NCBI GenBank assembly: GCA_010405405.1
Contig: MU004235.1
Coordinates: 1,809,539 to 1,873,538, forward strand
Source: Microthyrium microscopicum
Taxonomy: Eukaryota
Direction of reading: 5' to 3'
Length of the DNA stretch: 64,000 nucleotides
Part shown: one piece after another, positions 14,436-17,021 of the stretch
How positions within the stretch are numbered: the first letter of the stretch is position 1
Layout: every line of letters begins with the position of its first letter
Made by a program: the position numbers and the translations under genes
The notes under the pieces: model-generated
Told to the model about the DNA's origin: nothing
The model's input: only the letters and a program-made list of their open reading frames with translations
Databases searched by the model: none

Positions 14436-14904
14436 GACTAATAAAATACAATCATGACTACACGAAGAACCTTTATGTTTGCCCAGTACTGCAAAGTGCC
14501 AAAAGACACTGATATCTTTAGCGCATCCAATACAGGAATTCCAAACAGTTATCATACAAACTTGATACTTAGAAACCAACATAAGCTAATCTAGATACCT
14601 ACCTAGGTAGAAGCAAGAGCAACTCCCACAAAGTAGCAACGACTTTTGAAATGCCCCAGAGTAGCATTGATAGACCCAGCAGAACCAGCAGAACGAAAAT
14701 GACATCGGAAGGGTAAAGGCCAAACTCATTACCTCCTTGAACCTGCCAAGAATCCACGTATGCAGGTTCAGGACTTCGGTCTGTTTGGCGTTGTCTACGC
14801 CAACGTTGTATCTCCTCCCCTTTAACCGCCTCTACCCTCTGTGGGATAGAAGAGTTGGCCAGGGTTGGGGAGGTATGCTGGTCTTCATTGCTTACTGCTG
14901 GAAT

Positions 14905-17021
14905 CTATGGAGTATTAGCAGAGTCATTTTCAGCAGTTACTGGGTGATATAACTTTTGCAGGCGGAGCAGGCGGTTGTCTAACATGAGCTGTTCCTTGTC
15001 CAGTTTGAGGTTTGCGATCTCCTTGCCAGATTCGGCCTTTTGCTTCCCCAAGTCTGTTAGCGCCTTTGCGTGGATGACCTCGAGCTTTTGAATGTGGCTA
15101 TGTAGATTGGAGATCTTGGTGAGGAGAGGTTGGACGCTCATGCTGGGAGCTTCTCCACATTTTTTCTTCTCAAGGGCCTGGGATTGGTTAGTATCGTGAT
15201 GTGATCAGTAGTCATGCGTTGCGTATTGACTGGGTCGTGTGATCTTTTCGTGGGAATTTGGAAAGCACAAACACACGTTATGGAAGCGGTGGGAGCCATC
15301 GAATGTGATGGCGCCCACTACTGCTTTTGGTAATGTCGAAGATTGTCGGAAGGATTGGGATAGGGAGACACTTACATCGCGGTACATTTGGAGTTGCCCG
15401 TTGAGTTTCTTGACCTGCTCGCCTGCGGCAGCCTTGCCATCTACCAACTCTTTCTGGAGCGCTTTCCTACCCTCAGAAGAATCGAATTGTTGTAGCTTCA
15501 AAGCCTGGAATAGTCAGCAAAATGTCAAATCTGAAGGCGATGTGGTGACGACCAAAAATGTCATGGAAGCCATCGCATGTGGTGGGAGCCATCAAATGCG
15601 CTGGCAGCCACCGAAGCTTTAAACCGATTTCGAATGCCTTCAATGTGGTTGGGAGTTAGGGAATCTTACCTGCTCGAGCGACCCATTTGTCCTGCGAAGA
15701 TCTGCGATTGTATTATCTTGGGCACGAATGGTCTCGGCTTGCTTTTCTCCGGCTTCTTCGAGGTCACAGATGGTCTTTTTCAAGGCCGAACTGGATTTTG
15801 TCAGTATAGATTACAACGCAACCAGAGCTAACACGCCATGTGGTGAAACCTTGAAACTCCCATCGCATCTGGTGGGAACCATCGAGTGCGATGGGAAATA
15901 CAAGGTTTTTGATTTCATCGTTTGTCTCTAGGAAATGTGGGTTGACACGGGAGAATCTTACCTAGAAACTGTTAGTATACGATTGTAATCCGAGCTAAAA
16001 CGTCTGAAAAGCGCAAATGATCTCCTCAAGGTAAAACCATAAAACACCCATCGCACTCTATGGCAGCCATCGAGTGCGATGGGGGATTTGATTGTTTTGG
16101 TCCCGTCGGATGTCGTCAAGATATTTGGTTTGGCATGGGGGGAATCTTACATCTTCTCAGAATTATACTTCTCAATATCCACCTTCTCGCTCCAGTAATG
16201 CTTCCGGATCGCGGTAATCTCGTTCTGAGCAGTGGAGAGCTTGTGACGAAGGATCGCAATCTCCTTCTCATGAACCTCTTCCAAGGCTTCATGGGCTTCG
16301 ATCGTCATCAACAGCTGGCATTTGTTAGAGAATGGGGGCAAAACTGAGGTTCGCTGGTAGGCTGGAGAATTCTGGCGTGCTCCCATGAACGTCGATAATG
16401 CCCATCGTCTTTGATAAGCAGGAGATGCTCTTCTTGCCATCACACTCGATGATGACGAGGACATCTGATGGCAAAGAAAGCATCCAATGGGAAATAACAA
16501 GTCCGATGGGGAAAACATGACTTCCAAAATATCGCAGTAGATGGCAGCCATCAAAGCAGCTGGGAAGTAAAATTCACCGAAACAAGCTCATCCACCTCCT
16601 CCGGGATGCTCTCAACATCATCGGAATCACTACCAATCATCTCACAATCATCGCTATCGGACCACTCTACAAGCACTGTTAGCTCAACTCCGGGATACTG
16701 AAATAGCGAAAAATGCACAAAAGTCGAGACCCCGGATTTCGGCCATCAAATCATATGGCCAGAAACGCACTTCATCACGCCCATCGACTCTGATGGACAA
16801 GAAGAGAGCTTATCACAAAACACAGATTATGTGGAATGTTGTTTCCAGGAAGATGAAAACATACCAGATTCAGAAGACTCCGCCAACTCACAGAAGCTAC
16901 CCTCCGAACTGCAGTCAGTACCAGAGACTTCCATTCTGGGCACGACGTTCAGGACCTCTGGCTCTGAGGTCCAGCTCATGGCGCTGCTTGGGCGGGAAGG
17001 AATGGTGGGGATAGATGCCAT
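14905..17021 (-). CDS. Orphan ~310-aa protein with acidic N-terminus and coiled-coil C-terminus; exons 17021-16865, 16666-16578, 16314-16151, 15790-15670, 15504-15376, 15177-14905
   Basis: Six introns, each with GT donor, CTRAC branch and YAG acceptor; splicing gives an uninterrupted 933-nt frame (...YNSEKISALKKTICDLEEAGEKQAETIRAQ...). Confidence 0.75.
15178..16864 (-). mobile_element. Six related long hairpin introns (introner-like element candidates): 16864-16667, 16577-16315, 16150-15962, 15961-15791, 15669-15505, 15375-15178
   Basis: 37-nt core aligns without gaps at 16047-16083, 15859-15895, 15569-15605 and 16528-16564, partially at 15288-15312; CCATC-N6-GATGG unit at 16781-16796; three introns start GTAAGATTC. 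Mobility itself is inferred. Confidence 0.6.

Follow-up and report, generated by a model that had tools for sequence, protein, structure and literature searches.

Two introns that are diverged copies of one unit lie directly one after the other, with zero exon bases between them, in a gene on the minus strand of Microthyrium microscopicum, a Dothideomycete of the order Microthyriales. The reading that we consider probable is that they are diverged members of an introner-like family, placed head to tail by an old intron-specific copying event and spliced in two reactions. The gene was analysed within a window of 64,000 nucleotides, which is the whole stretch of DNA under study. The upstream unit is named i3 and the downstream unit i4, and positions are those of the window (Table 1).

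On the minus strand, the exon before i3 ends with ...GAGAAGAT at 16151 and i3 then begins with GTAAGATTCC at 16150. Its branch motif TACTAAC occupies 15977..15971, the branch A lying 10 nt before the acceptor G, and its 3' end reads TTTCTAG, finishing at 15962. There the second GT..AG unit starts at once: i4 opens with GTAAGATTCT from 15961, carries the branch motif TACTGAC at 15806..15800, again with the branch A 10 nt before the acceptor G, and stops with CCAG at 15791, and the exon picks up with TTCGGCC at 15790. Each position that the earlier note had given for these signals was confirmed on the minus strand, as was its claim of a zero-length exon: the acceptor G at 15962 adjoins the donor G at 15961, and this acceptor-donor pair lies inside sequence that the spliced contig described below lacks. 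Drosophila and vertebrate ratchet points have the consensus AG/GTAAG. Excision of all 360 nt joins AT to T and yields the frame ...YNSEK-I-SALKK.... That only removal of the entire 360 nt restores the frame, as had been proposed, agrees with one spliced contig and with the annotated protein, which reads ...YNSEKISALKK... across the 15790/16151 join.

Table 1. Coordinates of the host gene, its introns, the predicted hairpins and the skips of the spliced contig (positions of the window; for skips, the two joined bases).
Feature	Position	Strand	Description
Host gene as annotated	14892..16551	-	295-aa coiled-coil protein; ATG at 16551, stop TAA at 14894..14892
i2, possible degenerate relative	16315..16577	-	263 nt, GTGAAT..CAG; kept in X5 contig
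i3, upstream unit	15962..16150	-	189 nt; donor GTAAGA at 16150; acceptor TAG ending 15962
i3 central hairpin	16047..16083	-	12-bp arms CCCATCGCACTC / GAGTGCGATGGG; z -2.44; 2/200 shuffles as good
Zero-nucleotide exon, ratchet-like point	15961..15962	-	...TTTCTAG/GTAAGATTC...
i4, downstream unit	15791..15961	-	171 nt; donor GTAAGA at 15961; acceptor CAG ending 15791
i4 central hairpin	15858..15896	-	arms TCCCATCGCA / TGCGATGGGA; z -3.84; 0/200 shuffles
i5, third family copy	15505..15669	-	165 nt; nhmmer E 3e-34; removed in X5 contig
i6, fourth family copy	15178..15375	-	198 nt; nhmmer E 1.4e-39; removed in X5 contig
Skip in X5 contig	14904 -> 14954	-	49 nt, GT..AG
Skip in X5 contig	15176 -> 15375	-	198 nt, GT..AG; i6
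Skip in X5 contig	15503 -> 15669	-	165 nt, GT..AG; i5
Skip in X5 contig	15790 -> 16151	-	360 nt, GT..AG; i3+i4
Skip in X5 contig	16666 -> 16865	-	198 nt, GT..AG

The spliced contig stems from run X5 (coded organism B), in which 0.53 of the words sampled from 15400-16700 occur and whose RNA label is a guess. Its record 17, 5773 nt long and with zero mismatches, joins 15790 to 16151 and skips the 360 nt, whose ends read CT..AC on the plus strand. We took this contig as RNA, although the label of the run is a guess, because it contains five skips bounded by GT..AG, a pattern that speaks for spliced RNA from the same species. Two of the nine X5 contigs are at least 99% alike to the locus, namely the mRNA and a fragment of 164 nt that falls within i6; none of the contigs at this level of identity lies within i3 or i4. 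The joints that partly spliced forms would carry, 16151-15961 and 15962-15790, are absent from the X5 contigs. Since such contigs drop rare forms, this absence neither supports nor excludes splicing in two steps. A further run of another coded organism and study (X6) gave one contig of 208 nt with a depth of 2.5, which is identical over 15955..16162; it enters i4 by only 7 nt and therefore does not bridge the pair.

The similarity of the two units is well supported. When the gene was compared with itself by blastn, five internal matches appeared. The best of them pairs 16150..16030 with 15961..15842 (72% over 122 columns, E 2.6e-15) and begins precisely where the two donors begin. In a global alignment i3 and i4 are identical in 0.64 of all columns and 0.77 of the ungapped ones, where 200 shuffles gave 0.488 +/- 0.020 with a maximum of 0.549. 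MAFFT returned 114 matches, 53 mismatches and 26 gap columns (0.59 of all and 0.68 of ungapped columns); depending on the aligner, the identity of the pair amounts to about 59-64% of all columns or 68-77% of ungapped positions. When 10 nt of flanking sequence were included on either side, the alignment ran from donor to acceptor with one gap each of 21, 4 and 1 nt, and the flanks outside i3 and i4 did not align. As the similarity extends from base 1 to the last base of both units and the flanks are unrelated, the repeated unit is exactly one intron. The description of the pair as sister introns that are homologous along their length thus holds, by the blastn match and by the alignment from first to last base.

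The copies are not recent. About 32-41% of the MAFFT alignment consists of mismatches or gaps, and on the same alignment the Jukes-Cantor divergence is about 0.41; 31 transitions and 22 transversions give no clear signature of a RIP-like bias between i3 and i4. The 189-nt period was missed by Tandem Repeats Finder because the copies are too diverged. The earlier note had called the pair a snapshot of the intron-gain mechanism. This could not be upheld, since the two units, at about 59-64% identity, are hardly closer to each other than the other pairs among i3-i6 (0.56-0.61, with 0.64 for i3/i4 in the same comparison), and so low an identity points to a fossil arrangement rather than a snapshot. 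The pair i3+i4 is accordingly either an old, decayed arrangement or one derived from masters that had already diverged. A tandem arrangement created by the assembly is unlikely, because the units are too different for a collapsed or expanded repeat and because contigs covering the whole stretch pass over the site without differences; these contigs come from runs that are possibly the DNA's own source, and they are not independent.

Further members of the family were found in the same gene. A profile built from the copies themselves, so that their matches (E 1.5e-42 for i3) are by construction, located four copies in this one gene of 2.4 kb and none in the other approximately 61 kb of the window. 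Beyond these four, the search of the 64-kb window with nhmmer gave only a partial match inside i2 (16577..16315), at 16565..16498 with E 0.002. Four copies in one gene suggest a spread within the gene. The repeat finder grouped them into one family, with core-to-core spacings of 293, 290 and 188 nt, the first two being nearly equal. The core motif has 14 matches in the window against 0.5 expected, and a search for the donor motif with two mismatches allowed (10 matches, 8.95 expected) is uninformative alone. The first nine nucleotides, GTAAGATTC, are identical in i3, i4 and i5, and in each of the four copies CTRAC precedes YAG by 9-10 nt.

The predicted folds of both units contain a central hairpin with arms of 10-12 bp, extended in i4 by an outer stem AACCUUG / CAAGGUU, and in the predicted joint fold of the 360 nt each unit keeps its own hairpin. 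Three of the four copies retain the hairpin, the 3' arm being decayed in i6. Covariation is weak, with two-sided changes in 2 of 13 pairs among four sequences. The sole repeat that Tandem Repeats Finder reported is in i5, a 19-nt unit repeated 2.5 times at 15564-15610, overlapping the hairpin core. No Rfam family matches the units; a match to mir-392 was discarded as sub-threshold (24.7 bits, gathering score 62, E 0.11).

Outside the window, in DNA runs of what is probably the source sample, 19 of 20 contigs of run X1 come from other loci and not from the locus itself. The seven such pieces listed all fall on hairpin cores, over 42-79 nt and with 6-14 differences. In X1 and in X3 the stretch 16049-16145 is covered about 8-9 times as deeply as its flanks, a rough value obtained by summing contig depths. 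Off-locus core matches and raised core depth together indicate a family that would be dispersed in the genome. A metagenome scan with an 18-nt core pattern gave at least 119 loci, which were judged chance matches: the nhmmer profile recovered only the seeded core at these loci (20-80 nt, 11-17.5 bits), and the five longest matches, inspected by eye, are GC-rich non-intron sequence.

The properties of i3-i6 fit members of an introner-like intron family that would be old or inactive. They are spliceosomal introns with GT..AG ends and CTRAC branch motifs, and i3+i4, i5 and i6 are all removed in the spliced contig. Van der Burgt and co-workers reportedly found in 2012 that introner-like elements (ILEs) are longer than regular introns and have a stable predicted structure. 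Here, the copies measure 165-198 nt and an ordinary intron of the same gene 49 nt, and the folds of i3 and i4 have z-scores of -2.44 and -3.84. The copies are not near-identical, with pairwise identities of 0.56-0.64. ILEs are described as decaying quickly, and some families as inactive with low identity (PMC4457414), so that such values argue for an old or inactive family and not against kinship. As in the Dothideomycete ILEs presented by Collemare 2015 (PMC4457414), we found similar spliceosomal introns with complete signals, several per gene, and according to that source copies degenerate towards ordinary introns. It describes four genes with two gained ILEs each; unlike there, the copies in the present gene are 56-64% alike, number four or five and include two that abut. 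Introners that are DNA transposons (Micromonas type) carry terminal inverted repeats and create target-site duplications where they insert. In the sequence of this locus, duplications are not visible beside i3+i4, i5 or i6, and the inverted repeat is central and not terminal. In the literature searched on introners and recursive splicing we found no description of abutting introners, and a search on M. microscopicum gave nothing on introners.

How could a second copy come to lie exactly at the boundary of the first? We propose that the intron itself would be the copied unit, that the process at work would be the one to which this gene owes its four sister copies, and that an intron-specific event, rather than a random duplication of DNA, would have placed one copy at the boundary of a resident one long ago. 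The boundaries of the units coincide with the intron ends on both sides and no microhomology is visible there; this exactness, together with four copies in the gene and none in 61 kb, favours intron-specific copying. The most serious competitor is a precise tandem duplication of the resident intron at the DNA level, by unequal exchange or by slippage during replication; the two units would since have diverged for a long time, and intron-specific copying would play no part. Such an event would suit the observation that i3 and i4 are marginally the closest of the four, and they share a 3' segment (TTAGCTC..., ...TATACTRACA) over which i5 and i6 align poorly. However, their margin of identity over the other pairs is small, and both breakpoints would have had to hit the intron ends exactly, where no microhomology is seen. 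Moreover, among the single intron gains reported for Z. tritici, within-gene tandem duplication accounts for less than 1% and ILEs for up to 90% (PMC4457414). We therefore regard tandem duplication as a genuine possibility, though the less probable one.

Concerning the splicing route, a full donor, branch site and acceptor in both units make two successive ordinary reactions most likely. In a fungus whose ordinary intron in this gene measures 49 nt, the spliceosome would treat i3 and i4 as two ordinary introns and pair each donor with the nearest competent branch site and acceptor; the short zero-length-exon introns of two yeasts, described below, are a precedent. Being transcribed first, i3 would most likely be taken out first; its removal would join ...AAGAT to the GTAAGA of i4, which would then be spliced in turn, making the junction a literal ratchet point. 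The reverse order would also be chemically possible, because the signals of neither unit need the prior removal of the other. If splicing makes use of both the internal acceptor of i3 and the internal donor of i4, one would expect the signals to be kept, as they are, despite the divergence of i3 and i4; a family-wide constraint or too little time for decay could have the same result instead.

Alternatively, the 360 nt might be removed in a single step that uses the donor at 16150 together with the branch site and acceptor of i4, and the internal AG/GT would then be a silent relic. The only joint of the RNA contig at this site, 15790-16151, would fit such a step, and for a complex intervening sequence of L. 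starkeyi removal by either one or two reactions is possible (PMC7138796). However, contigs cannot show rare intermediates, and a single reaction would have to bypass a perfect TACTAAC and a nearby TAG, which lie nearer to the donor by 180 nt and are the first to be transcribed. Over 9 nt, moreover, the internal donor matches exactly the outer donor that is used, and both internal signals survive though the pair has diverged by about a third. Removal in one step thus appears unlikely to us, and two reactions remain the preferred route.

Going beyond copying as such, the base-exact abutment and the confinement of four copies to one gene might be the footprint of ILE movement by reverse splicing at or beside occupied junctions, a conjecture that we put forward with considerable doubt. 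The spliceosome would reinsert an excised intron into the transcript from which it came or into a sister transcript, preferably at or next to a junction that already has a spliceosome on it, and the intron would then be copied back into DNA. If this were true, introners in tandem, separated by zero-length exons, would arise predictably as a side effect and would naturally give rise to fungal recursive splice points.

A duplication of larger blocks was also considered, in which tandem units of about 291 nt comprised an intron plus an exon, with subsequent loss of the exon that had separated i3 from i4. The spacings of 293, 290 and 188 nt between cores would be in line with it, and the exons after i4, i5 and i6 all start with Ala-Leu-Lys/Glu. 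In sequence, the exons at 15790, 15504 and 15177 on the minus strand begin at or one codon before GCY-YTN-RAR. The 16-nt flanks after the three introns are, however, not significantly similar (P 0.057 against 20000 random triples of coding sequence), and these shared starts may reflect coiled-coil composition rather than a target site. None of the five internal blastn matches at E<0.01 joins exon to exon, two of the three exon pairs remained unaligned in BLASTP at E<=100 and the third reached E 4.7, and a base-exact deletion of an exon is improbable in itself. With no exon pair supported by blastn or BLASTP, block duplication was rejected as very improbable. Least credible of all, and next to negligible, is the acquisition of internal splice sites by one long ancestral intron ('stwintronisation' or intronisation), a route proposed for the complex introns of Lipomyces (PMC7138796), because it is contradicted by the homology of the halves. 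Their alignment covers the whole length and starts in register at the donor, and they also match two more separate introns of the gene (i5 and i6).

In anatomy and size i3+i4 resembles the zero-length-exon introns of yeasts, and in its parts it resembles introner-like elements. Recursive splicing with a zero-length exon had been stated to be described mainly for very long animal introns, which is incomplete given two short fungal cases: the 336-nt intron of SPNCRNA.445 in S. pombe, and the 375-nt intron of BOT1 in C. neoformans, composed of 210+165 nt, for which both junctions and both branches were seen (bioRxiv 10.1101/224170, 10.1101/226894). There as here, a 3' splice site adjoins a 5' splice site within a sequence of about 350 nt that is absent from the mRNA and has halves of ordinary intron size. 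In the yeasts, intermediates, branches and junctions were measured, whereas i3+i4 is known from sequence and contigs. On the other hand, the halves of the yeast introns are not described in the available text of these reports as homologous copies of a repeated intron family, as i3 and i4 are. The ratchet points of Drosophila and vertebrates (10.1101/006163) likewise regenerate a donor by juxtaposition after the first reaction, but they subdivide introns of tens of kilobases, whereas i3 and i4 are each shorter than 200 nt and are copies of one element.

As the earlier note had held, i3+i4 does not form a stwintron: the splice signals of both units are uninterrupted, neither intron being inserted into a signal of its neighbour, and no alternative nested parse starts with GT. 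It does share with the sister [D1,2] stwintrons of Hypoxylaceae (PMC8469720, PMC9024468) that complex intervening sequences with strong internal structure proliferate in Pezizomycotina. Those elements are reported to insert seamlessly without target-site duplications and to need consecutive splicing reactions; there, one intron is nested in the donor of the other, the order of splicing is obligatory and terminal inverted repeats are present (PMC8469720, PMC9024468). In i3+i4, by contrast, direct repeats stand side by side, each is complete, and either order is possible. The [D6,7] 'stwintron sensu lato' of Lipomyces starkeyi (PMC7138796) is similar in having abutting splice elements and in allowing one or two reactions. 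In that case, however, the adjoining elements are two donors, and a single intron acquired the internal sites; in i3+i4 it is an acceptor that meets a donor, and each half is an element of its own, homologous to the other. In the available text of the stwintron papers, abutting is a term of PMC7138796 only, where it applies to abutting donors.

How ILEs are copied in fungi, and from where zero-length exons originate, which is rarely traceable, are two questions that the present locus connects, as a ratchet-type AG/GT point composed of two recognisable sister elements that are both absent from a spliced contig. It offers a test case of 360 nt for whether fungi with short introns splice abutting introns successively, whether the order matters and whether family copies cluster locally, and it suggests an introner-like family in Microthyriales. 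As a single and old instance, its weight is moderate.

The host is a fast-evolving coiled-coil gene whose protein belongs to no known family, matches to Pfam being all sub-threshold. A search with the upstream exon of 54 aa against longer proteins matched only one of 153 candidates, which is the gene's own product, a hypothetical protein of M. microscopicum. The X5 contig is unbroken over 16151..16666, so that i2 is retained in it, and the annotated start ATG at 16551 falls inside i2. Removal of i2 would fuse in phase an acidic, Ser-rich frame of 80 codons that begins with an ATG at 17021. The i2 stretch carries remnants of the family core and may be a decayed, poorly spliced member of the family or else a regulated retained intron.

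At the other end of the gene, past the stop TAA at 14894..14892, a different frame is open for about 100 codons on the minus strand (14610-14904) and ends in a hydrophobic, tail-anchor-like segment. It can be reached only by a different donor for the 49-nt intron, and the candidate donor leaves just 36 nt; this frame is possibly an alternative or former C-terminus. Within the first 8000 nt of the window, the initial 6-8 kb or so are very AT-rich (GC 0.14-0.28, compared with about 0.46-0.50 elsewhere), which looks like an AT-rich block of the RIP type beside a gene-rich region.
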